DNA of 55,972 nucleotides, taken from contig JBDRCO010000130.1 in assembly GCA_043821645.1 (NCBI GenBank), positions 1 through 55,972 on the forward strand, given 5' to 3'. The notes under the pieces were generated by a model. It was not told the DNA's origin, did no database searches, and saw only the letters and a program-made list of their open reading frames with translations. A program made the position numbers and the translations under genes. Source of the DNA: Pseudomonadota bacterium (GTDB lineage Bacteria > Myxococcota > JACRCW01 > JAFGSX01). Below are positions 19,591-51,026 of the stretch, one piece after another (position 1 is the stretch's first letter; every line of letters starts with the position of its first letter).

Positions 19591-19721
19591 GTCGTGCCCC
19601 AAAAAAAGTGTCACCGGCGCAGGTCCACGCGACGCAACAAACTCACCGGCGTCCATATACTAATTGGTCGAGCCGTGCACCAGCTGGGCCTGAGGCTGGA
19701 TCTGCTGTGGAAGGGACCCCC

Positions 19722-22358
19722 ATGTTCATTCGACTTGGCATTGCGAGTACTATCCTGGCCTTGGCTCTCGCCTGCGTACCGCCACAGCGCGTCGAGGACC
19801 CGGCGCCCACCCGCGAGCGCTGCACCGCGGGGCTGGCCTACTGCGAGGCCAACGTGGCCAAGCAGTGCGACGAGCGCGGCTACGTCGGCAGTCGCCAGCG
19901 CTGTGGCGACTTCGCAGTCTGCGTCGACGGCGCCTGCGAGGGCAACGTGGTGTGCCGTCCCGACGAGCGCATCTGCGTCCAGAACGTGCTCAAGATCTGC
20001 CAGGCCGATGGACTGGGTTTTGGCAGCGAGGAGGACTGCGGGGATCGCATCTGCGCCGATGGCACCTGCCAGGACCCCAGTGGCACCTGCCCTCCGAACG
20101 CCCGCTACTGCGTGGGCAACACCGCGTACCAGTGCAACGTCGACGGAACGGGACTGCTGCTGGACCCGGTGGCCTGCGGCACCGGTCTGTGTGTCAACGG
20201 CGTGTGCGAGGCCCTGATCTGTGACCCGGGCAAGGCCGACTGCGATGGCGAGTCCGCGCGCACCTGCAACGCCCTGGGCACGGGCTACAGCGTGCAGCAG
20301 CTGTGCGTGACCCCGCAGCACTGCGTCAGCGGCCGCTGCCTGGACCAGGTGTGCGTGCCGGGGCGCAGCTGCGAGGGCAACACCGCCATCGAATGCAACG
20401 ACCAGGGGACCCAGATCATCAACCAGCGCGATTGCGGCACCCAGGTGTGTCGAAGTGGCCTGTGCGAGAACCGCGATGCCGGTGGGCCGGACAGCTCGGT
20501 CCCGGATTCCGCGGTACGCGACACGGCCCTGCCTGACACCACCCGCGTGGACAGCAGCGTGGCCGACGCGGCGACGCGGGACACGGCCGTGCCAGACACC
20601 AGAACCGCCGATGCGGCGGTGGCAGATGCGGCGCAGCCGGACACGGTGCTCCCGGACACGGCGCAGCCAGACTCGGCCCGGCCAGATGCCAGCTCCACCG
20701 ACGCCAGCGCCCCCTGTGTCGACAACGACCACGATGGCTACGGCCTCGGTTCGGGCTGCCTGGGGCGCGACTGCAACGACGACCGCGGTGACGTCTTCCC
20801 GGGCGCGCCCGAGTATGGCGACGGCCTGGACAACGACTGCGACGGTTCCGTCGACGAGGGCATGTCCTGCGCCGCCGGCGCACCCGCCAAACCCTGCCCC
20901 ACCGCCGGAGCGTGCAGCGGTAACAACGGCGCCCAGCAGACCTGCGTGGGCAACGTGTGGACCGCCTGCCCGGTGGCCGCCAGCGCCGAGGACTGCGACG
21001 GCGTGGACAACGACTGCAACGGCACTGTCGACGACCTGCAGGAACTCGGCGAAACCTGCTGGGCGGGCACCGGGACCTGCGAGCGCCAGGGTCAGCTCGC
21101 GTGCGATGCCGAGCAGCAGCTGGTGTACTGCGACGCGGGCCTGATCTCCGCCACCAGCATCGAAGCCTGCGGTAATGGCCTCGACGACGATTGCGACGGC
21201 GCCACCGACGAGAGCAGCTGCTGTCCTGTGCGCACCTCGCGCGATCCCTCGACCCAGACCTGCCGTCGTGACCAGCGCGGCTCGACCTGCACCGCCTGCA
21301 CCACCAACACGCAGTGCGGGAACAACTTCGACTTCTGCGTGACCGCGTCCGAGTCCAACCAGACCTGCTCCGGCACCGGCCAGGGCACCTGTCCCTCGGC
21401 GGACTACACGTGCAGCTACTGGTCCTGCTACTACGACGAGGACTGCCCTGGTGGCGGCATCTGCGAGGGGGCCTGGGCGGGTTTCATCCCGGGCACCTGC
21501 ACGGCGGGCATGTGCGATTACACGGTGTGCGGGCTCGACTGCCGCGACGGCATGCCCTGTCCGGCCGGCTTTGCCTGCTACGGCATCTACCTCACCGGCA
21601 CCGACTGCTCGACCACGGCCTGCCCCACCAACGATTGCTACAACACCGCAGCGTCGGGCGAGACCGCCGTCTATCAATGCCGCAAGACCGGCGAGTCGTG
21701 CAGCGCCAGCAACCCCTGTGCACCCCTGACCTGTGTCGAGGGCCGCTGCCAGGTCGGGCGCAACTGTCTGCCCGAGGGCAACCTGACCTGCTCGTCCATC
21801 CCGCAGAACCCACCCTGCGGGGCCGCCGGCTGTGGCGAGGGTGCGACCTGCAGTGGCAACCAGTGTGTACCCAGCACCACGTGCTCGGCGTCGGTGCGCT
21901 GCCCCATGGGCAAGATCTGCAGCAATGGCAGCTGCGTGACGGCTTCGCGTTGCCAGACCAGCGCCAGCTGCGGCGCCAGCTACTTCTGCAACAGCGGCTT
22001 TTGCGACAACGCCGACCCCTGCAGCAGCGACGGCGAGTGCCCGGCCACCACCTACTGCAACCTGGATGCGAATCCGGCGGTGTGCACGCCAGGCTGCCGG
22101 TTCAGCCAGCCTTCGGGCTGTAGCTCCGACCACTACTGCAACACGGCTCATCGCTGCATGCTGTCGCAGATCATTCCGGGGGGCCGTTGCGCGGCGTGCA
22201 GCGATCAGAACCCCTGCACCGAGGCCGGCACCTTCTGCAACCCCTTGACCAGTGAGTGCAACCTGCTCTGCATCAACGACAGCGCCCTGTGCCGCCAGAG
22301 CGTCGTGCCCGCGAGCGAGTGTCTGTTCCTGGGCTGCACCAATCCCGATTGCCCCTGA
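19722..22358 (+). CDS. Large Cys-rich lipoprotein with MopE-like putative metal-binding repeats
   Basis: Start MFIRLG...LALAC (lipobox). N-terminal Cys repeats, Asp-rich linker, GDGLDNDCDG / CDGVDNDCNG / CGNGLDDDCDG motifs, Cys-rich C-terminal half. Confidence 0.88.
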   Translation: MFIRLGIASTILALALACVPPQRVEDPAPTRERCTAGLAYCEANVAKQCDERGYVGSRQRCGDFAVCVDGACEGNVVCRPDERICVQNVLKICQADGLGFGSEEDCGDRICADGTCQDPSGTCPPNARYCVGNTAYQCNVDGTGLLLDPVACGTGLCVNGVCEALICDPGKADCDGESARTCNALGTGYSVQQLCVTPQHCVSGRCLDQVCVPGRSCEGNTAIECNDQGTQIINQRDCGTQVCRSGLCENRDAGGPDSSVPDSAVRDTALPDTTRVDSSVADAATRDTAVPDTRTADAAVADAAQPDTVLPDTAQPDSARPDASSTDASAPCVDNDHDGYGLGSGCLGRDCNDDRGDVFPGAPEYGDGLDNDCDGSVDEGMSCAAGAPAKPCPTAGACSGNNGAQQTCVGNVWTACPVAASAEDCDGVDNDCNGTVDDLQELGETCWAGTGTCERQGQLACDAEQQLVYCDAGLISATSIEACGNGLDDDCDGATDESSCCPVRTSRDPSTQTCRRDQRGSTCTACTTNTQCGNNFDFCVTASESNQTCSGTGQGTCPSADYTCSYWSCYYDEDCPGGGICEGAWAGFIPGTCTAGMCDYTVCGLDCRDGMPCPAGFACYGIYLTGTDCSTTACPTNDCYNTAASGETAVYQCRKTGESCSASNPCAPLTCVEGRCQVGRNCLPEGNLTCSSIPQNPPCGAAGCGEGATCSGNQCVPSTTCSASVRCPMGKICSNGSCVTASRCQTSASCGASYFCNSGFCDNADPCSSDGECPATTYCNLDANPAVCTPGCRFSQPSGCSSDHYCNTAHRCMLSQIIPGGRCAACSDQNPCTEAGTFCNPLTSECNLLCINDSALCRQSVVPASECLFLGCTNPDCP
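20475..20711 (+). repeat. Degenerate 15-nt (pentapeptide xDxxx) coding repeat linker
   Basis: PDSSV PDSAV RDTAL PDTTR VDSSV ADAAT RDTAV PDTRT ADAAV ADAAQ PDTVL PDTAQ PDSAR PDASS. Confidence 0.8.
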
Positions 22359-22505: not shown

Positions 22506-24929
22506 ATGGTGTCCAGCATGTGTCGAAGGCTGCCCATCCTGCGTCTCTTCCTGGCCGTGACAGTGGCCTCGCTGGTCGCCTGCGCCGACGCCGAGCTCAT
22601 GGGGCGTTATGCGCCGTACAACTCGCAGGTCTTCGAGCCGGTGAGCACGCTGCTGCGCAGGACAGCTCCCACGGTGCTGGACAGCAGCGACGGACAGGTG
22701 CGCGTGGAGATCCCCCCGCTGGCGGTGCATGCACCCGTGACCATCACCCTGTCGCGCGTGGTCAGCACGGATCCTGCGACGGGTGAGTCCTGGACCGCCT
22801 ACCAGCTCGAACCCTTCGAGCTGGAGCTCGAACGACCGGCGCGGCTGAGCATGAGCCAGGCCACCCTGCCTTCACGGAGCGGGCGCGAGGACCTGCGTTT
22901 GGCGCGGCTCCTGGATGACAGGCCCGAGGCGATCTGGCAGGCGCTGGAGCGGCCACAGGCCAGCAGCAGTCAGGTGCTGGGCCGCACCACCCGCTTCGGG
23001 CTGTTCGCGGTGCAGGACGTGACCCGGGTGCAGGTGGTGGGCAGCCAGCCCTTCACCAGCACCAGCGAGGCCGACGTGCTGCTGTCGCGGGGGCAGGTCC
23101 AGGCCGCGCGCGCCGCCTATGCAGCGGTGGCTGCGCGCAACCCGGAGGACGCGCGTGCGCTCATGGGCCAGGCCCTGACCTCGTTGCTGTTGCTGGCGGA
23201 ACACAGCAGCGTGCGCAACCTGCTCGCGCGCTGCGAGCTGCCGCCGCTGGGCGAGGCCAGCCTGTTTGGCGACGGAGGCTACCTGCAGCGTCTGGCCACC
23301 GATCGCGACGGCGAGGCCGAGCTAGGTCTGGAGTTCGGCCTGTCGACCACACCCCTCGAGGTGGAGTCCGTGGTGGCCCACGCCGGTGCGCGCTGGCTGC
23401 GGGTGCAGGTCGAGGACCGCGATCACATCGACGGTCCGTGGACTCTGTCTGTGAACATCGACCTTGCGGCCGCCGGTGATCGTTTCGCCTTTGGCCAGGA
23501 CATCCCGGCTCATGCCTTTCCCGGCGACATCGAGCTGCAAAGCCCGATACGGACCCTGCGCGTCGGCCTTGGGTCCATGGGCCAGATCCACGTCGAAGAG
23601 GCAGGGCGCGGCGCTGACCAGGAACTGGCGCTACGCTTTGACGGTGTGACCCTGGTCGACGAGAACAACCAGCTGGTCCGGATGACCGGCTCGCTGCACG
23701 ATATCCTGCGCCGGGCGCCGGTGCCGCCACACCCCCTGTTCGAGACCGACGAGGACGAGGGACCACCCCATCGAGCGCGTTTCGCCAGGTTGCTGGATGG
23801 CTGCAGCCAGGCCTTCACGGCCCCCTTCGTGTTCGCCCAGGTGCAGGGGCTGCGCGGTGAACTCGACCTCATCACGGCCGGGATTCGCGCCGCCCTGAGC
23901 CACAGCAGCGGCAATACGCTGGAGCCTGCACTGTCGGCGTTCCTGCTGCACACGGATGCCGATCTGCTGCTGGATCGCCGCGATGGCGAGCTGCTGGTTC
24001 AGCTGCTCGAAGGTGTGCAGCTGTCCCTGGACCTGGCCGCACCCTACCGCTGGCTGGGGTACGACGCGTCGGGGGAGAGTGTGGCCCTGGGCAGCTTCCT
24101 GGACACGCTCTCCTGGGCCTTCGACGACCCGTCGGGCAGCGTCGGCCAGCGCGACGAGCGCGTGCTGTCTTTTCAGCTGCTGGCGCAAGATCTCAACCGC
24201 AACCTGTTTGGTCATGACGCCGGGCCGGCAGCACTGGTGCAGGCGCTGGCCCCGCTGCGCGAACCGCTGAGGCTGTGGCTGCAGGAGCTGGACGGGGTGC
24301 TCGGTCACAGCGCGTCGTCCCCAGGCTTGTTCGACCTGGATCACGTCGACGCCCAGGACCTGATCGCCAGCCTGCGACAGCTTCTGCTCGCGCTGCGCGA
24401 CACCCTGCCCGACGGCGCCACGCCGGTGAACGCCCCTGCGAGCCCGGGCTACCAGGTGCTCGCGCGTCGCTGGTTCGAGGCGCCGCTCGAGCACGCGAGC
24501 CTGAGCGCTGCGTCGACGGATGGCGAGCTCTTCGTGGTGCAGCCCGGCGATCCCGAGGCCACCACCGCGGCCGCGCGCAATCCAACGCTGGTCGCCAGCC
24601 CTGCCCTGCTCGACAGCCTCGAGGCGAGCGTGCTGCTTCGACCCGTGGTGCCCCCTGACACGGTGTGCAGTGACGACGTCGAGTGCCCGGGCACAGGCCT
24701 TCGCTGCGGTTTCGCCCAGGGACAGTGCGCGGTGAGCGCTGAGGCCTGCGCCGGCAGCGGGTCCTGCACCGATGGCTCATCGTGCCTAGGGCTGTGCGAG
24801 CGCCAACCCTTCGAGCTGGTATCGCAGCAGGCCTGGCGCCGCGCCCTCGACGGCGATCACCCAGCCATGCTGACCGCACCGCTGTGGCGGTTGCTGCAGC
24901 CCTTGTGGGAAGAGTTGCCACGCCCCTGA
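22506..24929 (+). CDS. Large hypothetical lipoprotein (ZU5-like N-domain, TPR-like segment, Cys-rich tail)
   Basis: Lipobox SLVAC. SSDGQVRVEIPPLAV...YQLEPFELELERPARL...RFGLFAV resembles ZU5-type domains. ARNPEDARALMGQA is TPR-like. Start could be ATG 22518. Confidence 0.8.
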   Translation: MVSSMCRRLPILRLFLAVTVASLVACADAELMGRYAPYNSQVFEPVSTLLRRTAPTVLDSSDGQVRVEIPPLAVHAPVTITLSRVVSTDPATGESWTAYQLEPFELELERPARLSMSQATLPSRSGREDLRLARLLDDRPEAIWQALERPQASSSQVLGRTTRFGLFAVQDVTRVQVVGSQPFTSTSEADVLLSRGQVQAARAAYAAVAARNPEDARALMGQALTSLLLLAEHSSVRNLLARCELPPLGEASLFGDGGYLQRLATDRDGEAELGLEFGLSTTPLEVESVVAHAGARWLRVQVEDRDHIDGPWTLSVNIDLAAAGDRFAFGQDIPAHAFPGDIELQSPIRTLRVGLGSMGQIHVEEAGRGADQELALRFDGVTLVDENNQLVRMTGSLHDILRRAPVPPHPLFETDEDEGPPHRARFARLLDGCSQAFTAPFVFAQVQGLRGELDLITAGIRAALSHSSGNTLEPALSAFLLHTDADLLLDRRDGELLVQLLEGVQLSLDLAAPYRWLGYDASGESVALGSFLDTLSWAFDDPSGSVGQRDERVLSFQLLAQDLNRNLFGHDAGPAALVQALAPLREPLRLWLQELDGVLGHSASSPGLFDLDHVDAQDLIASLRQLLLALRDTLPDGATPVNAPASPGYQVLARRWFEAPLEHASLSAASTDGELFVVQPGDPEATTAAARNPTLVASPALLDSLEASVLLRPVVPPDTVCSDDVECPGTGLRCGFAQGQCAVSAEACAGSGSCTDGSSCLGLCERQPFELVSQQAWRRALDGDHPAMLTAPLWRLLQPLWEELPRP

Positions 24930-24942
24930 CCGGCAGCGGCCC

Positions 24943-25164
24943 TCAGGTCGGTGTGCGCGCGCCGATCTGGTAGGCGCTGACGTTGCCGCAGACCACGCAG
25001 ATGTAGTGCTGGATGTCGACGGTTCCCAGGGCCAGGAAGGGATCGATATCCCCCCAGTAGCGACCGCCGGTGCGTTCGCTGATGGCGGTCTTGCGCTGCA
25101 TGAAACCCTCGCAGCGTGGACACACACTGCTCGGGCGCAGCCGTCGATGCATGCGTTTGGCCAT
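24943..25164 (-). CDS. Small zinc-ribbon-like protein (73 aa)
   Basis: CPRC...CVVC pairs, GC3-biased codons, own promoter upstream. Confidence 0.7.
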   Translation of the reverse strand: MAKRMHRRLRPSSVCPRCEGFMQRKTAISERTGGRYWGDIDPFLALGTVDIQHYICVVCGNVSAYQIGARTPT

Positions 25165-25175
25165 GCTGGTCGAGC

Positions 25176-25204
25176 ACGATACTTCGAACCGGCGCAGCGC
25201 TCAA
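25176..25204 (-). promoter_or_regulatory. Putative sigma70 promoter of zinc-ribbon gene
   Basis: Minus strand TTGAGC-17 bp-TATCGT, 11 nt before ATG. Confidence 0.5.
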
Positions 25205-25265
25205 ACAGGATCCGGGCGGGCTCGACAGGGAGCCGCGGAGCGGGTCCACCCCCGACGTCCTTTTT

Positions 25266-26270
25266 CTAGATGGATACGGCCATGCGCCACACACGCCCAC
25301 CACCCTCGACCAGCACGTGCCCCTGGTCGAAACGCAGCGCTCCCTGCAGGGTGCCCAGGTGCGTGACCTGCTGCACCGTGCCTCCGGACAGCGGGAGCAG
25401 AGCCAGATCCACGGGCCCCTGGGTCGAGGCGGGAAAAGCCTCGAGAGACACCAGCATGGCGAGACAAGCGTCGCTCACTGCCACCGGTGCGCAGCACGGC
25501 TGGGACACGGGCAAGGACATCAGCTCGCGCCGCGCGCCGCCAGGAACCACCTGCCACAGCTGGCCACGCGGATCCTCACCCAGCACGCAGCTCCAGGCCA
25601 CCACGCTGTCGTCGGGCATCATGCTCGCCGCGATCCACGACGGTGCGGGAAGCGGCCCCAGCAGACGGCGCGAGGCCCCCGAGGCCAGGTCGCGCCAGTG
25701 CAACGAAGCGTCGCCGCGCTCCTGCCGCACATCCATGAACACGAGCGTGTTTCCGTCGTCGCTCAGGGCAGGTTCCACCGCGCGCAGCGGATCCAGAGCG
25801 CCCTCCAGCTCTGCCACGTGCTGCACCGTCATGCCCTGCAGATCGATGCGCTGCAGCTGCCGAGCCCCGAGGTCCATCACCAGCACCCAGCGGCCGCGCG
25901 AACCGACGCCGAGGACCTGCCCGGGAAGGCGCAGGCACTCGCCCCCTGCGTCGAGCACGGCAATGGCCTCGACACCCGAGGACAGAGCCTGGCGGCGCTG
26001 CAGCTGAACCACGATGTGCTCGCCCACGGCTCGCGGGTTGAGCACGCGCCAGGTATCGTCGGCACGCAGCAACTGCGCCGCAGCGTCGCCAGACACGCTC
26101 TCGCGATACAGCCCGGGCTTGAGCCCGCCGCCCTCGGCGCTGAACAGCAGACTGTCGCCGTCGAGGGACACGCCGTGGACCCGCACCCCGGGTGCCCGAG
26201 CGCAGCGCGGGATCAGCTCCTCGACCCGGCCCACCCGGGGCAGGCCGGCCACGCTAATCCTGTGCGGCAC
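25266..26270 (-). CDS. Hypothetical protein, TolB/WD40-like beta-propeller
   Basis: Blade-like motifs SLDGDSLLFS, PALSDDGNTLVF, MPDDSVVAW. Overlaps the upstream gene by 17 nt. Confidence 0.65.
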   Translation of the reverse strand: MPHRISVAGLPRVGRVEELIPRCARAPGVRVHGVSLDGDSLLFSAEGGGLKPGLYRESVSGDAAAQLLRADDTWRVLNPRAVGEHIVVQLQRRQALSSGVEAIAVLDAGGECLRLPGQVLGVGSRGRWVLVMDLGARQLQRIDLQGMTVQHVAELEGALDPLRAVEPALSDDGNTLVFMDVRQERGDASLHWRDLASGASRRLLGPLPAPSWIAASMMPDDSVVAWSCVLGEDPRGQLWQVVPGGARRELMSLPVSQPCCAPVAVSDACLAMLVSLEAFPASTQGPVDLALLPLSGGTVQQVTHLGTLQGALRFDQGHVLVEGGGRVWRMAVSI

Positions 26271-27174
26271 AGATCACTCCGCCCACGACGGTGTCGCCGG
26301 GCGGAACCACCTCGACGATCTTGGCGTTGAGGCTGCGCTCGATGCGGGCGCGGCCGCCTCCAGCGTCGGGCAGGTCCAGGTGATCGGGCTCGCGCAAACC
26401 GGGTTCGCGAGGAATCACGCCGTCACCGGGTGTTCCGTAGTAGTCCGTGGTGTGCAGGGCGTTGAAGGAGCGCTCGAAGTCGGCGGCACGCCACACGTGG
26501 TCCTTTTGCACGGCCCAGCCGTGCTTGGCCACCAGGTAGCGCTCGCCATCCTGGTCGAAGTAGCCCTCGATCACCGCGTAATGCGCGCGCTGGCCGCCGA
26601 AGTCTCCTGGATTGCCGTTGCGGTCCACGTCAAAGGCCACGATGGCAGGGTGGCCCGCATCGAGGACGCGATACAGGTCGTCGAGGGAGGCATTGTCGTG
26701 CAGGCTGGCCTGGTAGCCGAAGTGGGCCGCGGTCTGGCCGAGCTGGCGCGCCGTGAACATCTCGCCCTGCGAGGTGAAACCCGCACCCTCGGCGTAGTCG
26801 AGGATGCGCTCGTCGGTGGTGGGGTCAAAATTATAGTGCCGACCCTTGCCTCCGAGATCGGCGTTGCTGACCAGCGGCGCCGCACAGGACGCCTCCTTGC
26901 CGTGCCAGAAATCCATGACCATGCCCAGGGCATACAGGCCACAGGTGGGGCCCTGCTGCTCGCGCTGCGGCACGTCGGCCTTCTTGGCATGGGCGATGAT
27001 CTCGGCGCGCGACAGGGGCTGGGCCGGGCGCGTCGAGGGTGCGTTGATCTCCATGCCGTCGGGAGCGCGCAGCACGCTATCGCGGCGGCTTGTCCTGGTG
27101 GCGATGACCACGGGAGCGTCGCCCCCAGCGACGGGCTGACGCGTAGAAAAAAGATTACGGAGGCGGACACCCAT
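26254..27174 (-). CDS. Papain-like (C39-related) cysteine protease resembling actin maturation protease ACTMAP
   Basis: QQGPTCGLYAL (catalytic Cys), GFTSQGEMFT, GHPAIVAFDVD, GGQRAHYAVI (His), YLVAKHG. TAGAAT -10 lies upstream. Confidence 0.82.
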   Translation of the reverse strand: MGVRLRNLFSTRQPVAGGDAPVVIATRTSRRDSVLRAPDGMEINAPSTRPAQPLSRAEIIAHAKKADVPQREQQGPTCGLYALGMVMDFWHGKEASCAAPLVSNADLGGKGRHYNFDPTTDERILDYAEGAGFTSQGEMFTARQLGQTAAHFGYQASLHDNASLDDLYRVLDAGHPAIVAFDVDRNGNPGDFGGQRAHYAVIEGYFDQDGERYLVAKHGWAVQKDHVWRAADFERSFNALHTTDYYGTPGDGVIPREPGLREPDHLDLPDAGGGRARIERSLNAKIVEVVPPGDTVVGGVICAAQD

Positions 27175-27330
27175 GATGAATACCCCGGCCCATTCTACCC
27201 TGGGCGGTGGGGATTTGGCGCCTCTCGAGACGCCCGGAGCCTGGCCCGAGCCTGAGCTCGCTGCCGGGCTGGGTGTGGAGGTCGGGGACAGGCCGCGAGC
27301 CGACGCGGGACCCGCGAAGGGGAGGCATGG

Positions 27331-30159
27331 TCAGGGCACGATGGGTTGCACGAAGACCTCGCGCTGCTTGTTGCCCGGATACTGTGGGCCGATGAGGCCG
27401 TCCTTCTCCATGCGCTCGACGATGCGGGCTGAACGGTTGTAGCCAATCTTGAGCCGGCGCTGGATCATAGAGATCGACACCTGGCGCGACTCGGCCACGA
27501 TGGCCACTGCCGCGTCGTAGTGCTCGTCATACTCCTCGTCGACACTGTGGCCTTCGCCCTCGCTCGACTCGACGCCGGCCTGCAGGATCGTCTCGTCGTA
27601 GGACGGCGTGCCCTGGGTCTTGAGGAACTCGACCAGCCTGTTGATCTCGACCTCGGAGATGAAAGCGCCGTGACAGCGCATGAGCCCGCTGGCGCCGGGA
27701 GGGATCAGCAGCATGTCGCCCTTGCCCAGGAGCTTCTCGGCGCCCACACCGTTGATGATGGTCTTGGAGTCGTGATTGCTGGCCACCTGGAAGGACATGC
27801 GCACCGGAAAGTTGGCCTTGATCACGCCGGTGATCACATCGGTGGACGGGCGCTGGGTGGCGAGCAGCACGTGGATGCCGCAGGCCCTGGCCTTCTGAGC
27901 GAGGCGCGCGATGTAGGTCTCGACGTCACGCGGGGCCACCATCATCAGGTCTGCGAACTCATCGACGACCACCACAATGTAGGGCAGGCGCTCCGTCGGC
28001 AGGGGGGCCTCGGCGGCGGGTGCGGCCGTATCGGGCACCGGTTCGGCGGTCTCTCCGCTCTCACGCTCGTCGTGAATGATGACTTTCTTCCGCGTCCCGG
28101 CCGCAGTGGGTTCGGGTGACGCGGGCGTGGCGTCCTGCGGCGCCGCCAGGGACAGCCTGTCGACCTTCTTGTTGTAGGACATGATGTCGCGTACGCCAGC
28201 GTCGGCGAGCAGCTGGTAGCGGCGCTCCATCTCGTTGACGGCCCAGCACAGTGCGGCCGCCGCCTTCTTGGGGTCGGTCACCGGAGGCAACAGGAGATGA
28301 GGGATGCCCTCGTAGATCGAAAGCTCGAGCATCTTGGGATCGATCATCAGGAAGCGCACGTCGTCGGGCGTGGCCTTGTACAGGATGCTGGTGATGATCG
28401 TGTTGATGGCCACGCTCTTTCCGGAACCCGTGGTTCCCGCGATGAGCATGTGCGGCATCTTGGCCAGGTCGAGGTGCACCGGCCGCCCCTCGATGTCCTT
28501 GCCCACGGCCATGGCCAGCTTGGAAGTCGAGCGCTGGAACTCCTTGCTGGCGATGATCTCTTTGAGAAACACCGACTGCCGATTCTCGTTGGGGATCTCG
28601 ATCCCCACTGCTCCCTTGCCCGGGATGGGAGCCACCACACGCACCCGGATGGCCTCCATGGCCATGGCCAGGTCATCGGCCAGGCTGGAGATCTTGGCGA
28701 TGCGGGTACCGGCGGCGGGGACGAATTCGTAGGTGGTGACCACGGGGCCGGGACGGATCTCGCGCACGGCACCCTCGATGCCGTAGTCCCGGAACTTCTT
28801 CACCAGCTTGCGCGCTTGCTCGTTGAGCGCCTCGATGTCGACGGGCACCTCGTCGGGTGCGTCATAGTCGAGCAGGTTGAGCGGCGGCAACTCGAAGCGG
28901 TCGCCGATGGGTTGGGGCCTTTCGTCCTTTGTCGCCTCGACCAGCTTCTTCTGATCCCGCTTCGAGCGAGGCTTGAACTCCACGATGCGCGGCGCCGTGG
29001 CAGAGGTCTCATGCTCGACAGGATGCAGCTCGTCGTCGTCGGAGGCGATCTCTCCATCCTCGTTGGCCGCGTCGGGTTCGACAGCCAGGAGCTCGGTCAC
29101 CCACGGCGGATCCTCGAGGGGGGACTGCGCGAGTGGCGAGGGTGCGTCGACCGGCTGCCGGCGTGAAAACAACCGCCCTTCGCTCTCGGACCCTGCGGGT
29201 TCATAAGTGGCATCCGGACCGGACGGGATCTCGTCGAGTGCCGGGCTGCCCGGGTCGGTCACAGCGGCTTCCTCGTAGCTTGGAGCCAGAGCCAGCAGCG
29301 TGGCGGCTTCCTGGGCCTCGCGGACCCGCCGGGCCTCGCGCTCGACGTCACTCTCGGCGAGGTTCTCGGCGCGGACACGCACCGCCTCTCGCCTCTTGAG
29401 CTTGCGCTCCTCGCGCTGGGCCTGCTCCTCGAGTTCGGCCTGCTGCGCGGCTTCGGCCATGCTGGCAGCGAGGGCCAAGCGCTCGGCCCGCTTCTCCCCG
29501 CGCAAGCGCCAGCGCTCCCGCTGCACCGCAACCAGGTCCACACACCACTCCGCGAGATGTCGTGCTGCGTCGACCACGGCCTCGACCAGGGTGCTGAGCG
29601 ACAGGTTGGTGGCCAGCAGTGCGCCCACCGCGAGCACGGCCCCGGCCAGGATTCCTGTGCCGACGGGGGCGAGCAACCCCACGCCCGCGTCGCCGACCAC
29701 CGCGCCGAGCAAACCGCCTGGGGGATAGGCGATATCCGCCACCTGGGTCAGCGCAATATGAGCGATGGTGGTGGCACCCACCAGGGCGATGACGATACCC
29801 AGGGCCTGGCTCCAGGCCAGGCTCAGGCGGCGCGGCCGAAAACATTGCGCCCCTGCCAGCAGGAGGCCTCCCGCGAGCAGGTAGGCACCCACACCCACGC
29901 TCGCGAACAGCAGGTCCGCGAGCACCGCTCCGGCCGGCCCCACCAGGTTGGCGGGCCCGTGCGGGTCGGGCCACCCTGGCCCCGCAGGCTGGTAGGAGAA
30001 CAGCGCCAGACCCATGAGCACGGAGGCTGCCAGCAAACCCACACCCGCCAGTTCACGCACCCGGTTGTGGGTCATGCTGTCGTCGGACACCACCCGCAGC
30101 GCGGGACGGGCCGGGCGCTCGGTCTTGCGTTCTTTCTTCGCTGCTGAACTTTTTGCCAT
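27331..30159 (-). CDS. ftsK: DNA translocase FtsK
   Basis: 4TM N-domain (NLVGPAGA), GPVVTTYE, AGTTGSGKS, IDPKMLEL, DEFADLM, ATQRPS, gamma domain IQRRLKIGYNRSARI. Confidence 0.98.
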   Translation of the reverse strand: MAKSSAAKKERKTERPARPALRVVSDDSMTHNRVRELAGVGLLAASVLMGLALFSYQPAGPGWPDPHGPANLVGPAGAVLADLLFASVGVGAYLLAGGLLLAGAQCFRPRRLSLAWSQALGIVIALVGATTIAHIALTQVADIAYPPGGLLGAVVGDAGVGLLAPVGTGILAGAVLAVGALLATNLSLSTLVEAVVDAARHLAEWCVDLVAVQRERWRLRGEKRAERLALAASMAEAAQQAELEEQAQREERKLKRREAVRVRAENLAESDVEREARRVREAQEAATLLALAPSYEEAAVTDPGSPALDEIPSGPDATYEPAGSESEGRLFSRRQPVDAPSPLAQSPLEDPPWVTELLAVEPDAANEDGEIASDDDELHPVEHETSATAPRIVEFKPRSKRDQKKLVEATKDERPQPIGDRFELPPLNLLDYDAPDEVPVDIEALNEQARKLVKKFRDYGIEGAVREIRPGPVVTTYEFVPAAGTRIAKISSLADDLAMAMEAIRVRVVAPIPGKGAVGIEIPNENRQSVFLKEIIASKEFQRSTSKLAMAVGKDIEGRPVHLDLAKMPHMLIAGTTGSGKSVAINTIITSILYKATPDDVRFLMIDPKMLELSIYEGIPHLLLPPVTDPKKAAAALCWAVNEMERRYQLLADAGVRDIMSYNKKVDRLSLAAPQDATPASPEPTAAGTRKKVIIHDERESGETAEPVPDTAAPAAEAPLPTERLPYIVVVVDEFADLMMVAPRDVETYIARLAQKARACGIHVLLATQRPSTDVITGVIKANFPVRMSFQVASNHDSKTIINGVGAEKLLGKGDMLLIPPGASGLMRCHGAFISEVEINRLVEFLKTQGTPSYDETILQAGVESSEGEGHSVDEEYDEHYDAAVAIVAESRQVSISMIQRRLKIGYNRSARIVERMEKDGLIGPQYPGNKQREVFVQPIVP

Positions 30160-36611: not shown

Positions 36612-36711
36612 GCAGGCCCATCTCAGTGCCGCGGGTGCTGCGCGGCCACTTGTGAGATCACCTCCGAAAAGGCCATGATGGAGGGCTGTGCAGATTGCAT
36701 GGGAGGATACC

Positions 36712-39700
36712 GTGCGTACCATCTCCAGAACCGCATCCTGGGCCAACCCGGCCATGGCTCTGATCGCCTTCGTCGTCACGGCCTGCCCGGACACCGCGGT
36801 GACCCCGGGCAGCGACGCGGGCCCCCGCTTCGACGCCGCGCCCATCGACACCCAGGTTGGCGACGTGACGGTGGTGGATGCGAGCGGACGCGACAGCGGC
36901 CCGGGTCTGGACACCCAGCCCGGCGTGGATCACCGGGTCGACAACCCCGATCCCAACCGCAATGACAACGACACCCGCGACTCGGACTGCGACGGCCTCA
37001 GCGACGCCGAGGAGTACGGCAACATCTACGGCGGCGGCGGCCAGACCCAGCCCGGGACCTCGGACAGCGACGGCGACGGCATCCTCGATGGCGTCGAGGT
37101 GGGGCGAACGTCCTCGGTGGACGCCCGCTGCACCATGTTCGTCGGCGACCAGGACACCACCACCACGACCGATCCCACCCGCGCAGACAGCGATGGCGAC
37201 GGCCTGAGCGACGGCCAGGAGGACAGCAACCGCAACGGGCGCCGCGACCCCGGCGAGCTGGACCCGCGCGATCCAGACACCGACGACGACGGCCTGTGCG
37301 ACGGGCCCACCAGCGTGCTGCCGATCTGCACCGGTGGCGACCCGGACCCCTTCAGCGACGTGCAGGACACGGACCAGGACGGCGTGCCGGACACGGTCGA
37401 CACGGCCCCCACCAATCCGGATCGCGATGGCGATGGTCTGTGCGACGGCCCGCGCAGCGTGGCCGGGGTGTGCCAGGCGGGCGAGGACCTCAACGGTGAC
37501 GGCGTGCTCGGCGCCGGTGAGACCGATCCCGATCGCGTCGACACGGACTGCGACGGCCTGAGCGACGACCGCGAGCGCGCCCTGGGGCTCAACCCGCGCA
37601 AGAAGGACACCGACGGCGACCTCATCCCCGATGGTATCGAGGCGGGCATGGCGCAGAACCCCGACGCCACCAACTGCACGAGTTTTGTGGCGGACGCGGA
37701 CCCCGCCACCACGACCGACGGCAGCAGCGTCGACAGCGATGGCGACGGCATCAACGATGGCATCGAGGACGCCAACCGCAATGGGCGCGTGGACACCGGC
37801 GAGACCGACCCCAACAATCCGGACACCGATGGCGACGGCATCTGCGACGGCCCGCCCCGCACCATCGCCGGCGTGTGCACGGGCGGCGAGGACCTCAACG
37901 CCAACGGCCACGTGGACCCAGGTGAGACCGACCCGCTGGTCGTGGGCACCGCCGTGGTGGACAGCGACGGCGACGGGCTCAACGACGACATCGAGAACGC
38001 CATCGCCTGCCTCGACGCCAACAACGCGGACAGCGACGGCGACGGCCTACCCGATGGTGTCGAGGACAGCAGCCACGACGGTCGCGTGCAGCCCGGCGAA
38101 ACAGACCCCTGCGACGTGGACAGCGACTGCGATGGCCTGGTCGACGGCGCTTCCTACGGCGCCTACACCGGCGAAGTCACGGTGGGCACCCAGCCCACCA
38201 ATCCCGATACTGACGGTGATGGCCTGGGTGATGGGCTCGAGGTGGGAATCACCGGCGGTGCCATTCCGCCAGGCACCGATCCGACCTGCGGCTTCGTCGC
38301 CGACAGCGATCCCTTGACCAACACCAACCCCAACTCCGCGGACAGCGACAACGACGGCGTGCCCGACGGTGCCGAGGATGCCAACCAGAACGGCCGCGTC
38401 GATTGTGCCGACGGCAGCGCCCCCCCGGGTGGCAACCTGACCAACTGCCCGGGCGGGCTCACCGAGCTGAACCCCAACGACAACAGCGACACCGGCGGGC
38501 CGGTGATCGCGGCCTGTGGCACGGCCAGCCTGGTGCCCGTGGACCAGCGCCGGGAGTGGACGCCCGACCTGCAGCTCGCCACTGCCGTACGTGGTGCCGA
38601 CGCCTTTGCCGAGATGGTGCGCATCGACGACACCTCGGGTTCGAGTCCCCGTGCCGTGGGCCTGGCGGGCTACAACCCCGACGCGGCCATTGGCTACGTG
38701 GTGCTGGTCAAGACTCCTGCCGGGGGGACCGCCGCGGCCGAGGAGACGGATGCGCGCAACCGGCTCGCGCAGTCCGGCGCCCTCAGCGCGCCCATCACCT
38801 TCCCCTTCACCAGCTGGGACGGCTACTCCGGGATCCGTGGCTCCTACGCCCAGTCTGCGACCCGCGGCGTCAAGGCCCAGGTCAATGACATCGTGCACCG
38901 CTTCTTCCCCACCACCTCAACTCTGCTGAGCACAGCTGGGGACGTCTCGCCCAGCGGCGGCTACCAGGTGCGCGCCGAGTACCTGCGGCGATCGAACAAC
39001 GTGGCGGTGGTGCTCATCGCCATCATCCCTGACAATCGCAACACCGGGCGCGCCTTCTTCACTCTCGACGACACCGCCAATGGCAGCGCCCTGGCGCAGT
39101 ATGGCGACACCGTGGGCGTGCAGTGCGACCGCTTCGTGTCCCAAGGCTTTGCCAACGTCGACTTCCTGTGGGCGGTGGACAACTCGGGCTCCATGGACGA
39201 CGACCAGGCCGCGGTGGCCTCGTTCGGCACCGAGATGGGCAGCATCCTCAACGGCTCCACCATGGACTGGCGCGTGGCCCTGGTGACCTCGGAGTTCCAC
39301 GAGAACCAGAGCGCCGCTTGCCAGAACACGCAGACCAGCCCCTGCCGTAACTTCACGACAAACCCGGCGGAATTCACACGCTGGTTCACCGACGGCGATA
39401 GCGCGTGGATCACCGTCGACGGTTCGGGCACCGAGGCCGCCATGTACGGCGCCCAGCTGTACATTCGCGATCGGCTGTCTCCGACGACCACGGCGACACC
39501 GCCCCCCAACGACAAGATCCGCCGCGGCGCCTATCTCGTGATCATTGTGCTCACCGATGCCGAGGATCAGCGCACGGGCTACACCAGCTCTTCGGGCAGA
39601 CTGACCAACATCAACGACTACACCGCCTTCTTCACCGACTACGACCCCGCAGTGGTCGGCAACCAGACCGCAACCCTGGGCGGCATCCTGTGCGCGCCGG

Positions 39701-40746
39701 GCCAGACCTCGGGCTGCGACCCCACCGAGCCCTACTCGTCCAACCCCGTCATCCACACCACCATCCAGAACCTCGGTGGCGTCATCGGCGACCTCAAGGA
39801 CACTGCGACCATCCGCCCGACCATCCTGCAGATCCTGGCCAACGTGGCCGGTGCCACCAGCCCTTACGTGCTGACCAAGCCCGCGATCTCGTCGACGGTG
39901 AAGGTGGCCCTGGCGCACAACTCGACCACCGGTACGTGCAACTGGGACGACGTGCCCCGAGATCGCAGCAACGGCTTCGACTACGATCCCCTGAGCGGCA
40001 CCATCGTGTTCTATGGCAACTGCCGACCCGATCCGGCCCAGCCCGGAAGCCCGGTGGTGGTGTCCTATCGCTACTGGACGGACCGCACGCCCGATCCCGA
40101 CGGCCCATCCACGGGCTGCGACTGCACACCTCCCGAGCAGTGCGATCCGGTGACTCTCGAGTGCTACTGCCCGCCGGACTGCGGCGTGGGCACGGTGCCC
40201 CCTGAGCAAGTCTGCGACACCACCACGTGCCAGCTCGGTTGCCGGCCTGACTGCGGCGCCAGCTGCCCGGGCAACTCGGTGTGCAACGCCTCGCCATCGG
40301 TATGCGCCTGCGAGTGTCCTCAGGACTGCGGTGGGGCACCGCCGAGCGGGAACTTCGTGTGCGACCGCTCGACGACGAGCCAGACCTATTGCGAGTACGT
40401 GTGCACCCAGTGCCCCGGCACACCTACCAATCCCACGATGACCTGCAACCCCAGCACCTGCACCTGGACCTGCCCCGCCTGCGGCAACTGCCCGGGTCTA
40501 TCGACCTGCAGCCAGCAGACCTGTGCCTGCGAGTGCAGCCAGAGCCTGAGCTGCGGACCCGGCTATCGCTGGGACGCGACGGCCTGCGACTGCGTCTGCG
40601 ACACCACCAGCCTGGGCTGCGGTGCGAACTTCTTGCCCGAACCTGGCCTGTGCGCCTGTGTCTGCGGCAGCAACTGCAACGATCAGTGCGTGGGCAGCCT
40701 GCGCTGCAACCAGAGCCTGTGCGCCTGCGTGCCTATAGGCGGCTGA
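36712..40746 (+). CDS. cglD: Adventurous gliding motility lipoprotein CglD-like (TSP3-type Ca-binding repeats, VWA, Cys-rich tail)
   Basis: GTG after GGAGG, lipobox VVTAC. DSDCDGLSDAEE start and about 20 Dx(D/N)x(D/N)G repeats. MIDAS VDNSGSM...GTE...TDAED. EGF-like Cys-rich C-terminus. Confidence 0.82.
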   Translation: MRTISRTASWANPAMALIAFVVTACPDTAVTPGSDAGPRFDAAPIDTQVGDVTVVDASGRDSGPGLDTQPGVDHRVDNPDPNRNDNDTRDSDCDGLSDAEEYGNIYGGGGQTQPGTSDSDGDGILDGVEVGRTSSVDARCTMFVGDQDTTTTTDPTRADSDGDGLSDGQEDSNRNGRRDPGELDPRDPDTDDDGLCDGPTSVLPICTGGDPDPFSDVQDTDQDGVPDTVDTAPTNPDRDGDGLCDGPRSVAGVCQAGEDLNGDGVLGAGETDPDRVDTDCDGLSDDRERALGLNPRKKDTDGDLIPDGIEAGMAQNPDATNCTSFVADADPATTTDGSSVDSDGDGINDGIEDANRNGRVDTGETDPNNPDTDGDGICDGPPRTIAGVCTGGEDLNANGHVDPGETDPLVVGTAVVDSDGDGLNDDIENAIACLDANNADSDGDGLPDGVEDSSHDGRVQPGETDPCDVDSDCDGLVDGASYGAYTGEVTVGTQPTNPDTDGDGLGDGLEVGITGGAIPPGTDPTCGFVADSDPLTNTNPNSADSDNDGVPDGAEDANQNGRVDCADGSAPPGGNLTNCPGGLTELNPNDNSDTGGPVIAACGTASLVPVDQRREWTPDLQLATAVRGADAFAEMVRIDDTSGSSPRAVGLAGYNPDAAIGYVVLVKTPAGGTAAAEETDARNRLAQSGALSAPITFPFTSWDGYSGIRGSYAQSATRGVKAQVNDIVHRFFPTTSTLLSTAGDVSPSGGYQVRAEYLRRSNNVAVVLIAIIPDNRNTGRAFFTLDDTANGSALAQYGDTVGVQCDRFVSQGFANVDFLWAVDNSGSMDDDQAAVASFGTEMGSILNGSTMDWRVALVTSEFHENQSAACQNTQTSPCRNFTTNPAEFTRWFTDGDSAWITVDGSGTEAAMYGAQLYIRDRLSPTTTATPPPNDKIRRGAYLVIIVLTDAEDQRTGYTSSSGRLTNINDYTAFFTDYDPAVVGNQTATLGGILCAPGQTSGCDPTEPYSSNPVIHTTIQNLGGVIGDLKDTATIRPTILQILANVAGATSPYVLTKPAISSTVKVALAHNSTTGTCNWDDVPRDRSNGFDYDPLSGTIVFYGNCRPDPAQPGSPVVVSYRYWTDRTPDPDGPSTGCDCTPPEQCDPVTLECYCPPDCGVGTVPPEQVCDTTTCQLGCRPDCGASCPGNSVCNASPSVCACECPQDCGGAPPSGNFVCDRSTTSQTYCEYVCTQCPGTPTNPTMTCNPSTCTWTCPACGNCPGLSTCSQQTCACECSQSLSCGPGYRWDATACDCVCDTTSLGCGANFLPEPGLCACVCGSNCNDQCVGSLRCNQSLCACVPIGG

Positions 40747-49409: not shown

Positions 49410-51026
49410 TCACTCCCCCTCGTTGCCAATGGGTGCCAGCTCGCCGATCTGCTCGACGTAGACCCGGGTGCGGCCGGTGAAGGTCCACAGGGTGTTGCTG
49501 TTGTAGCGCCAGCCCAGCAGGTTGGACTCGCCGCCGGCCACCGTCGTCACCAGCAGGGTGTTGTCGATGCCGCCGAAGCCCATGGCCTGGCCGCGCGGCG
49601 TGGGCTTGTCGCCGCGATCGGCGTCGACAGGGATCCAGCCGTATCCCGGCAGGTAGATCTCGACCCAGCGGTGGAACACGTTGTCGACGAAGGCGTCGTC
49701 GCCGCGGGTGACGATGCCCGCGACGTAGCGCGCCGGGATACCAGCGGCGCGACACAGGGCGATGAGCACGAAGGAATACTCGGAGCACGACCCCGTCGAG
49801 CGCGACAGCAGCAGGGGCACCGGATCCCAGCCGCCCTCGCGGCTGTAGTCGAGCTTGCCCAGCACGTACTGGTAGATGTTGCGCGCCATCCAGTACGGGT
49901 GCGTCTCGCCCGCCACCGCCTCCCGCGCGGCCTCGACCACGATGGGGCTATCGAGGTGGTACTTGCTGCTGTTGGACAGGTACTGATCGCGCATGCGGCG
50001 GTCGATGGTGCCGTAGGACTTGACCTTGTCGGGGTCGATCCAGAACCGGGTCCGCGTCAGTGTGCTGTCCACGGCCATGGCGTACTCGCTGTAGGAGCCT
50101 GCAGCCAGGTTGCGGCGGTGAAAATGCGCCAGCTTCTGCCCCCAGTTGTCCTCGACGATGGCATCGGGCTCGGGGGTGAAGCGCGGGCCGTTCTGGATGC
50201 TCTGGTGGTAGCGATTCTCGGGCAGGGCGATGTAGATGTCCGCGGTCTGCACCGGGTCCGGGCCCTGGCTGAAGAAGTGCACCGTGTACTCGACACGCAG
50301 CTTCTTCTGCTCGCTTGCGAGCAGGGCCGGCCCCTGGGTGACGTTGAGCCGGGCCAGCTTGCGCTGCTGGTAGTCCCCCACCCACAGCCGCTTGCCGTCC
50401 CAGGCCAGGCCATAGGGGTGCGGCCCCGGGCTCGGCAAGATGCCCACCACGTGTCCGCGCTTGGGGTCAATCTTGTACAGCTCGTCGGCGCCGCGGTCTG
50501 CCACCCACAGGTACTTGCCGTCAAAGGTCATGCCCGTGGTCGCGCCTGAGGGCGCCGGCAGCGTGCGCGACACCGTGCCGTCGTCGGGATCCAGGCAGTA
50601 CAGGGTGTCGGTGCGCGCCTCGGCCACCCACAGGCACTCGCCGTCCCAGGCCAGGCCGCGCGGCGCCTTGAGCGGCGTCTTGTACACCCTGTCGACAACG
50701 CCGCTGCTCGGGTTCAGGCGAAACAGCTCGTCGCGATCGCGGTCCGCCACCCACAGGTAGCTGCCATCCCAGGTCAGCCCGGTCGGCCGCAGCCCCGGCG
50801 TGGGCAGCTCGGCCAGCACGCGGCCGGTGTTCGGGTCCAGCTTGAACAGCTTGTTGACCTTGCGATCCGCCACCCACAGCGCGCTGCCGTCCCAGGTGAT
50901 GCCCATGGCGCAGCAGGCCGGCGCAGGCAGCTCCTTGAGCACCTGGCCGATGCGCTTGGGGGTGGGCTCCGCAGCCGGCGTTGACTGTGCTGGCAATGCG
51001 ATGGCGAGCAGCAGGGGCATCAGCAC
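49410..51026 (-). CDS. Secreted transglutaminase-like protein with N-terminal beta-propeller
   Basis: Signal peptide. Five G(L/I/M)x(W/F)DGxxLWV blades. Triad motifs GSCSEYS, HRWVEIY, WIPVD. Confidence 0.9.
   Translation of the reverse strand: MLMPLLLAIALPAQSTPAAEPTPKRIGQVLKELPAPACCAMGITWDGSALWVADRKVNKLFKLDPNTGRVLAELPTPGLRPTGLTWDGSYLWVADRDRDELFRLNPSSGVVDRVYKTPLKAPRGLAWDGECLWVAEARTDTLYCLDPDDGTVSRTLPAPSGATTGMTFDGKYLWVADRGADELYKIDPKRGHVVGILPSPGPHPYGLAWDGKRLWVGDYQQRKLARLNVTQGPALLASEQKKLRVEYTVHFFSQGPDPVQTADIYIALPENRYHQSIQNGPRFTPEPDAIVEDNWGQKLAHFHRRNLAAGSYSEYAMAVDSTLTRTRFWIDPDKVKSYGTIDRRMRDQYLSNSSKYHLDSPIVVEAAREAVAGETHPYWMARNIYQYVLGKLDYSREGGWDPVPLLLSRSTGSCSEYSFVLIALCRAAGIPARYVAGIVTRGDDAFVDNVFHRWVEIYLPGYGWIPVDADRGDKPTPRGQAMGFGGIDNTLLVTTVAGGESNLLGWRYNSNTLWTFTGRTRVYVEQIGELAPIGNEGE

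Follow-up and report, generated by a model that had tools for sequence, protein, structure and literature searches.

An ACTMAP-family cysteine peptidase of a Myxococcota bacterium and its predicted β-propeller partner

The role of a relative of the animal actin maturation protease (ACTMAP) in a bacterium is the question raised by the 55,972-nucleotide contig JBDRCO010000130.1 (in the following, the window; assembly GCA_043821645.1), which is deposited as 'Pseudomonadota bacterium' and assigned to the Myxococcota by GTDB. The gene concerned encodes protein P0001, taken by the original prediction for a bacterial homologue of ACTMAP that may process N-acetylated protein termini or act on eukaryotic actin. 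Such a homologue is not new in itself, since Pfam and NCBI annotation cover it and bacterial members of the ACTMAP family are already known; the new part is a partner protein, modelled as a β-propeller, the gene of which lies directly downstream of the protease gene on the same strand. This partner gene is translationally coupled to the protease gene and represents the most informative feature of the locus. The conserved protease–propeller pair appears to be undescribed in the literature searched, where, among the matches listed for the family names, C19orf54 was the only name in use. P0001 is probably a controlled toxin-like protease rather than an actin-processing enzyme. The two genes are:

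26254–27174, minus strand: gene for an ACTMAP-like/C39-like clan CA cysteine peptidase (P0001, 306 amino acids, aa; stop codon 26254–26256)
25266–26270, minus strand: partner gene for a PD40-type β-propeller protein (P0379, 334 aa; GTG start; 17-nt overlap with the protease gene)

The protease frame has a gene-like codon bias, with a G+C content at third codon positions (GC3) of 0.83, compared to 0.85 for the partner gene and an overall G+C content of 68.4 % for the window.

Family membership and phylogenetic position of the protease

P0001 is a member of the PF21646 family (ACTMAP-like_C), and its likeness to ACTMAP is far beyond chance: (i) PF21646 is its top Pfam match (68.3 bits at a cut-off of 27, E 1.1e-18), (ii) BLASTP aligns residues 72–240 with P0234 (E 1e-17, 26 % identity), a protein of the beetle Acanthoscelides obtectus with the UniRef name 'Actin maturation protease', all five motif regions being colinear, and (iii) a profile of alignment A1 (32 close, Myxococcota-type homologues) picks up P0234 at E 1.4e-14. 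Neighbours of P0234 carry actin maturation protease or UPF0692 names in insects, fish, a ray and an acorn worm, and P0261, which contains the sequence QEGPQCGL, is matched by P0001 at E 5e-16. These comparisons were made with animal orthologues in place of the human sequence; identity to animal-type ACTMAP proteins amounts to 26–31 % and is confined to the core (~170 residues). The predicted homology to ACTMAP is thereby confirmed, and so is the assertion that the resemblance goes beyond that of C39 peptidases in general, since the profile searches rank ACTMAP-like_C about 40 bits above the C39 models. Peptidase_C39_2 (PF13529) reaches 28.8 bits (cut-off 24) across residues 68–209, overlapping the stronger PF21646 match, and Peptidase_C39 (PF03412) stays below its cut-off (11.7 versus 22 bits). 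Only these three peptidase families are returned by Pfam for P0001 at E up to 10, and NCBIfam contains no model for the protein.

Among 1.84 billion representative proteins, the A1 profile found 858 matches at E ≤ 0.001 (219 at E ≤ 1e-10). The ACTMAP catalytic domain is thus common in bacteria, where it occurs in exported, VgrG-borne and leaderless forms. PF21646 is part of the precomputed annotation of all 120 homologues among the matches listed, and some homologues are already named 'C39 family peptidase' by NCBI.

The peptidase proper is organized as follows:

26455–26979, minus strand: peptidase core, residues 66–240 (PF21646 and PF13529; colinear with beetle ACTMAP)
26941–26943, minus strand: codon of catalytic Cys78 (invariant in 32 homologues; aligned with the Cys of GPQCGL in beetle ACTMAP)
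26581–26583, minus strand: codon of catalytic His198 (invariant; aligned with the beetle protein; inside the predicted partner interface)
26257–26454, minus strand: C-terminal extension, residues 241–306 (TDYYGTPGDG ... KIVEVVP; conserved in homologues)

All five motifs quoted in the original prediction are present, and in the order given there, in the translation of the open reading frame (ORF) 26254–27174, i.e., QQGPTCGLYAL (residues 73–83), ILDYAEGAGFTSQGEMFT (124–141), GHPAIVAFDVDRNGNPGDFGGQRAHYAV (174–201), YLVAKHG (213–219) and VWRAADFERSFNAL (227–240); likewise, both catalytic codons, counted from 27174, lie where they had been placed. The core contains Gln73 (oxyanion hole), Cys78 (nucleophile), GEMF (137–140), His198 and His218. 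Across the 32 aligned homologues, Q73, C78, G137, E138 and H198 are invariant, and H218 is conserved in at least 90 %. The putative catalytic set consists of Cys78 and His198 with Gln73 forming the oxyanion hole, and His218 is probably the third catalytic residue; in the sequence KHGW it would occupy the position of papain Asn175, judged from the weak match to ervatamin (E 0.82). PMC13367750 names C132 as nucleophile of human ACTMAP and reports a resemblance of ACTMAP to bacterial cysteine proteases in AlphaFold predictions; by its motif, Cys78 would map onto C132.

The AlphaFold2 model of P0001 built from A1 (mean predicted local distance difference test, pLDDT, 89.6; predicted template modelling score, pTM, 0.82) is that of a papain-fold (clan CA) cysteine peptidase. 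Since the PDB is devoid of ACTMAP, with neither an ACTMAP sequence nor structure found there by sequence or profile, the fold search yielded only distant papain-fold peptidases (C39-like 3erv as best match, staphopain, PCAT1, phytochelatin synthase; template modelling score, TM, 0.3–0.45), the C39 toxin structure 8ssk_D ranking 43 (E 4.9e-3). Searching the PDB by sequence gave nothing with the single P0001 sequence and, with the profile, no match other than ervatamin B. The PF13529 score and the fold matches 3erv and PCAT1 would also agree with an ordinary C39-type leader peptidase, which removes double-glycine leaders of secreted peptides or bacteriocins. This is extremely improbable, however, considering the score of PF03412 below cut-off and the lead of ACTMAP-like_C over the C39 models; moreover, neither a fused or adjacent ABC transporter nor a small precursor gene was found in the window and nine related loci.

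A FastTree phylogeny was calculated from 136 domain sequences (34 of 170 dropped as fragments), with a midpoint root only and with clade labels based on nine named animal proteins, one named chytrid protein and domain fusions. P0001 groups with the VgrG fusions P0146 and P0153 in a bacterial clade of 48 rows (support 82), whereas the animal proteins, the chytrid protein and four GNAT fusions form a separate 36-row clade (support 98). Outside the immediate clade of P0001, the C-terminal domain of the VgrG spike protein P0146 comes closest, with 40 % identity across 186 residues (E 2e-36), and Pfam confirms that both P0146 and P0153 carry a VgrG domain. P0001 thus belongs to the ACTMAP-like family without being an ACTMAP orthologue, since it resides in a separate clade, neither within nor sister to that of the animal proteins, and since the VgrG-borne domain of P0146 is far closer to it than animal ACTMAP; a close relationship to ACTMAP can therefore not be upheld. 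A simple hydropathy test assigned a hydrophobic signal or anchor-like N-terminus to 22 of the 48 proteins of this clade, so that exported proteases are common around P0001. P0146 and P0153 share the motifs VP.R.Q.GPTCG, GMVMD.WHGKD and HYAVI.G with P0001, but carry the protease domain covalently on the spike of a type VI secretion system (T6SS), lack the C-terminal extension and have GGMS in place of GEMF.

As described in PMC11735805 and PMC13557074, ACTMAP was identified only in 2022, is animal-specific, removes the N-acetylated initiator Met or Cys from actin and works with profilin–actin and NAA80. P0001 shares with animal ACTMAP the PF21646 domain, the colinear motifs Q-x-GP-x-CG-L (nucleophile), GEMF, AH[YW]AV (His) and [KR][HQ]G, and the make-up of a cysteine peptidase of cytosolic type, in which a single domain is preceded by a disordered N-terminal stretch. 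It differs by a 65-aa C-terminal extension, an extra loop (~94–120), a conserved motif ahead of the domain, the dedicated propeller partner and the lack of an NAA80, profilin or actin context. That P0001 could be an ACTMAP equivalent acting on N-acetylated initiator residues of the bacterium's own actin-like proteins, or an effector directed at eukaryotic actin, agrees with the real homology to animal ACTMAP, the conservation of Cys, His and GEMF, and the leaderless, disordered N-terminus. Nevertheless, such a role is very unlikely: P0001 stands outside the animal clade and resembles its members in the core only, the bacterial proteins closest to it are carried on VgrG or exported by Sec, and the ACTMAP pathway, which according to the sources cited is confined to animals and linked to NAA80 and profilin, includes nothing comparable to the dedicated partner of P0001. 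A check for actin-related and type III secretion system (T3SS) genes, as suggested with the original prediction, was run on 43 window ORFs and turned up no actin-like, profilin, NAA80-like, T3SS or T6SS gene. The proposed processing of actin or of N-acetylated termini accordingly finds support in nothing beyond family membership.

The family also includes fusions to other domains. Among 40 scanned representatives, 39 scored above the PF21646 cut-off, including two VgrG, five GNAT acetyltransferase and two FYVE fusions. The GNAT acetyltransferase is joined to an ACTMAP-like protease in P0232, P0250, P0254, P0262 and P0138; four of the five belong to the animal-ACTMAP clade, and P0138, with two protease domains, to the bacterial clade. 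Acetyltransferase and protease in a single chain would echo the ACTMAP–NAA80 pathway. P0202 and P0233 combine the ACTMAP-like domain with a C-terminal FYVE zinc finger and fall into a separate 32-row clade, the members of which mostly start with MP. Two long relatives, P0132 (798 aa) and P0137 (681 aa), possess the C-terminal extension of P0001 (...SFYGDP..., LIEV[VI]P); in P0132, the N-terminus is signal-like and the protease domain is preceded by a weak PQQ_2 propeller match. The N-terminal regions of both were considered as fused homologues of the partner (Rosetta-stone proteins) and rejected (hhalign probability 0.5 % and 0.1 %, respectively).

The propeller partner and its predicted complex with the protease

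An iterative hidden Markov model search for the partner over 1999 ORFs from the window and 41 loci of close relatives (39 with myxobacterial or 'Deltaproteobacteria' names, the others named 'bacterium' or 'Pseudomonadota bacterium') retrieved 17 matches, i.e., the window copy, 15 genes directly downstream of a protease gene (15 of the 41 loci) and a weak match elsewhere in locus L041. In these 15 loci, the start of the partner gene lies between a 19-nt overlap with and a 1-nt gap from the protease stop. At least seven partner homologues were found in a word-indexed protein search. The partner shares only 17–38 % identity between loci, compared to 52–75 % for the protease of the same loci, and six of the 15 aligned partners are short forms (~230 aa) without ~100 N-terminal residues, including interface residues 30–100. 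One protease–partner pair (L016, 5872–7528) has a 7-nt overlap and resides in a locus with 47 % G+C; the module therefore spans Myxococcota of very different base composition. No other neighbour is conserved: 36 flanking ORFs of nine loci are mutually unrelated, and FtsK, encoded next to the protease in the window, adjoins it in none of the 41 loci.

The partner is not assigned to any Pfam family above threshold (PD40, at 20.7 bits, lies just under its cut-off), and its model is an all-β propeller (pLDDT 91.1). Its nearest folds in the PDB are propellers of S9 peptidases, i.e., 2bkl (Myxococcus xanthus prolyl endopeptidase, E 1.9e-9, TMq 0.58), 5yzm, 3azo and 4ax4, with tricorn and TolB as further matches; structural neighbours in the Atlas are Peptidase_S9_N, DPPIV_N and acyl-peptide hydrolase clusters (TM 0.64–0.72). 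A signal peptide is found in neither the protease nor the partner.

Complex prediction for the two proteins gave an interaction prediction score from aligned errors (ipSAE) of 0.83 (median of 0.84, 0.54 and 0.83), compared to 0.00 for the best of three controls. Of 80 solved complexes, 58 attained the mark set for ipSAE, as did 2 of 110 mismatched pairs; these counts hold here only roughly, because the analysts' own alignments were used. Contacts agreed by at least 61 % between runs, and partner pLDDT was at least 84. On the protease side, the predicted interface comprises residues 72 and 74–76, which flank Gln73 and end two residues before Cys78, as well as 183–196, His198 and 220–229; on the partner side, it consists of periodic loops from successive blades, which together form one face (top) of the propeller. 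Two features stand out:

26587–26628, minus strand: loop 183–196 (VDRNGNPGDFGGQR) just before His198, predicted to dock on the propeller top face and central channel
26617–26619, minus strand: codon of Asn186, with the best-defined interface contacts, to several blades

Residues 185/186 are paired with partner residues 212, 228, 230, 256, 258, 259 and 284 at an expected error of 1.1–1.6 Å. N186 is present in all 16 pair-bearing but only 2 of 23 pair-lacking sequences, and H226 in 16 of 16 versus 1 of 22. The metagenome-assembled genome JAVJQW01 contains two protease copies, one with partner (L017) and one without (L013), yet the latter also has Asn186 and His226. The modelled geometry resembles that of S9 peptidases in that the propeller is predicted to sit over the catalytic face, yet loop 183–196 would lie inside the channel, and the short forms lack blades. 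In silico, the pair agrees with the arrangement expected of an immunity gene, which lies directly downstream and the product of which is predicted to bind the effector.

Possible roles of the propeller: inhibitor, gate or sensor

As a mechanism, the propeller top face may bind the catalytic face of P0001, contacting the Gln73 loop and His198, with loop 183–196 plugged into the channel, and this would block substrate access to the peptidase. The propeller could then act in the manner of an immunity protein or antitoxin, as the cognate inhibitor of a protease of toxin type, and would protect the producer in the cytoplasm up to the export or release of the protease. An effector–immunity-like pair, in which the protease is kept in check by its dedicated propeller inhibitor, is tentatively favoured, with somewhat less than an even chance, because the nearest relatives of P0001 are VgrG-borne or exported, the partner is fast-evolving, its short forms are truncated and the channel is plugged in the model. 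In particular, an inhibitor is more easily reconciled than a closed gating ring with short forms missing ~100 N-terminal residues.

A precedent is the bicistronic pair Tse1–Tsi1 of the Pseudomonas aeruginosa T6SS, in which the upstream gene codes for a Cys-His enzyme of papain fold and the downstream gene for a propeller-type protein that sits on the active site of this enzyme, an arrangement predicted also for the present pair. According to PMC3391265, Tsi1 is a DPP-IV-like partial β-propeller which occludes the Tse1 active site and hydrogen-bonds the catalytic His. Differences are evident in that Tse1 is a periplasmic NlpC/P60 peptidoglycan amidase and Tsi1 a small periplasmic partial propeller, whereas the proteins of the present pair lack signal peptides and include a full-size propeller (334 aa; ~230 aa in short forms). 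Moreover, the two systems have no sequence relationship, and no T6SS genes are found near the pair. C39 peptidase domains are also known as toxins: bioRxiv 10.64898/2026.05.07.723447 describes StbD-CT (contact-dependent inhibition) and Cpe1 (T6SS) as antibacterial C39 peptidase toxins that act in the cytoplasm, cleave GyrB/ParE and have self-processing linkers and downstream immunity genes, and Tox-PL-C39 is listed among polymorphic toxin domains in PMC3482391. In common with StbD-CT and Cpe1, P0001 has a C39-like cysteine peptidase domain, a downstream immunity-like gene and possibly a self-processed upstream linker; it differs in being only a distant fold match (8ssk_D) and in missing the delivery and entry domains of these toxins. 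Likewise, the StbD immunity protein StbI, as depicted in the same source, is a small β-sheet protein and attaches to an exosite without closing the active site, whereas the partner of P0001 is predicted to cover it.

Several observations weigh against the inhibitor. Related, aligned proteases without partner number 23, and among the downstream ORFs selected from their loci, none is shared beyond two pairs (L030/L032 and L037/L039), which would be odd for a strong toxin. With respect to delivery, no VgrG-like sequence is present in the window and the 41 loci (454,085 bases), no T6SS, T3SS or ABC-exporter gene adjoins the pair in the window or among the 36 flanking ORFs of nine loci, Pfam recognises no trafficking domain on P0001, and the neighbours in the window are housekeeping genes (FtsK, RarA/MgsA, RecN, pyruvate dehydrogenase complex). 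PADLOC-DB 2.0.0 (E up to 0.1) returned no family for either protein. The ipSAE represents the model's own confidence, i.e., predicted binding rather than a measurement. As the pair-bearing sequences belong to a single clade, phylogeny confounds the signal at N186 and H226, and the interface does not stand out by conservation: entropy is 1.77 versus 1.99 bits elsewhere in the partner (p 0.11) and 0.98 versus 0.81 in the protease (p 0.24), and clade-specific consensus changes affect 17 of 36 interface versus 64 of 152 other positions (p 0.58). Finally, the S9 gating propellers nearest to the partner by fold suit a gated peptidase equally well.

In S9 peptidases, the catalytic face is held against the top of the propeller, which gates the active site. 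P0001 and its partner could analogously be the two obligate chains of a gated peptidase, corresponding to prolyl oligopeptidase, DPP-IV or acyl-peptide hydrolase but assembled non-covalently. The propeller would then act as a substrate filter that grants access to Cys78 only to small peptides and flexible peptide ends, and the complex would serve the cytoplasmic trimming or maturation of N-termini or peptides. The PD40/POP-type propeller predicted over a peptidase active site is common to both, but S9 oligopeptidases are single chains with an α/β-hydrolase serine domain, whereas two chains and a papain-fold cysteine peptidase are involved here. Beyond the fold matches of the partner (S9 propellers, tricorn, TolB and the Atlas neighbours) and the predicted orientation of the catalytic face toward the propeller top face, a gate is consistent with the lack of a signal peptide in both proteins, the absence of secretion genes nearby and the occurrence of GNAT acetyltransferase fusions elsewhere in PF21646. 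A peptidase of this kind is rather unlikely all the same, considering that loop 183–196 plugs the channel in the model instead of leaving it open, that the short partner forms cannot close the same ring, that the divergence of the partner is very fast for an obligate catalytic subunit, and that the 23 related proteases manage without it; furthermore, no homology to the partner could be detected for the propeller region of the fusion protein P0132. A more specific version, in which a propeller-gated, two-chain cysteine exopeptidase has arisen on an ACTMAP domain by convergence with acyl-peptide hydrolase and prolyl oligopeptidase and admits only flexible N-termini, seems unlikely; acyl-peptide hydrolase also removes N-acylated residues. 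The kinship of P0001 to ACTMAP, an enzyme removing an N-terminal acetyl-amino acid according to PMC11735805 and PMC13557074, agrees with gating as well. If true, the exopeptidase would represent regulated N-terminal maturation in bacteria and open a window on the origin of ACTMAP from exported bacterial proteases.

The propeller might also serve as a fast-evolving sensor in abortive infection or toxin–antitoxin-style defence, holding the protease inactive and releasing it upon a phage or stress signal to cleave an essential host protein. A conserved effector with a fast-evolving partner, the patchy distribution in varying genomic context without other conserved neighbours, the two copies in one metagenome-assembled genome (L013, L017), the predicted capping of the catalytic face and the lack of signal peptides would all be compatible with such a system. 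It is quite unlikely nonetheless, since PADLOC gave no match, neither defence genes among the flanking ORFs scanned nor phage or mobile-element genes adjoining the pair were seen, and the protease gene comes first. A toxin-first order is less common in type II toxin–antitoxin pairs.

In one clade of Myxococcota, an ACTMAP-type domain has gained a propeller as its dedicated partner, for which a position on the active site is predicted. An inhibitory partner would establish a new effector–immunity or toxin–antitoxin family, and a gating partner a new peptidase architecture. In both cases, the pair is an amenable bacterial system for studying the specificity of ACTMAP-fold enzymes, no solved structure of which was found in the PDB.

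Termini of the protease and surroundings of the pair

The N-terminal part of P0001 contains the following features:

27082–27174, minus strand: variable N-terminal region, residues 1–31 (modelled as disordered, pLDDT < 50)
27109–27111, minus strand: alternative GTG start at residue 22 (where the copy in public collections begins)
27052–27069, minus strand: motif RAPDGM ahead of the domain, residues 36–41 (conserved in homologues)

The start codon of P0001 is uncertain; the N-terminus MGVRLR is found also in a homologue of 84 % identity. The N-terminus of ~65 aa had been described as a low-complexity sequence without Sec signal. The latter holds true, since no Sec-type hydrophobic segment is apparent (peak 12-residue hydropathy of 1.32 at a threshold of 1.9), but low complexity does not extend throughout, because RAPDGM is conserved. 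Mean pLDDT of the residue blocks 31–50 is ~76. The N-termini of homologues mostly start with MP, followed by a Pro/Thr/Ser-rich stretch and a clade-specific conserved motif, which in the Myxococcaceae/Archangiaceae sister clade reads ARPDPLAVT.ANGT in place of RAPDGM (common core P-D-[GP]-[ML]). In StbD-CT, the linker upstream of the C39 toxin domain is auto-processed, as stated in bioRxiv 10.64898/2026.05.07.723447; by analogy, RAPDGM may possibly be a propeptide or auto-processing site. At the opposite end of P0001, the C-terminal extension is modelled with pLDDT of 92–98 for the blocks from residue 241 onward; it is missing from the alignments with animal ACTMAP and the VgrG-fused relative, which stop near residue 240.

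Neither promoter nor terminator sites were found by scanning 24800–27500. The ftsK stop and the protease ATG are separated by a 156-nt gap (27175–27330, minus strand), with TAGAAT ~25 nt upstream of the ATG. The protease gene may be transcribed together with ftsK or from a separate promoter that deviates from the consensus.

Two genes convergent with the pair encode a Cys-rich protein of 916 aa with MopE copper-binding motifs and a Dickkopf_N-like stretch (19608–22358, plus strand) and a protein of 807 aa that begins like a lipoprotein and has a single weak TPR match (22506–24929, plus strand). A 1352-aa ORF (36688–40746, plus strand) is gene-like according to its GC3 of 0.88 and has no Pfam match at E up to 1e-5. 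The gene at 49410–51026 (minus strand) codes for 538 aa, combining a propeller-like N-terminal half (Vgb_lyase, DUF6923, Lactonase) with Transglut_core of papain-like fold, so that the window harbours, in addition to the pair, a protein in which a propeller and a papain-fold domain are covalently joined.

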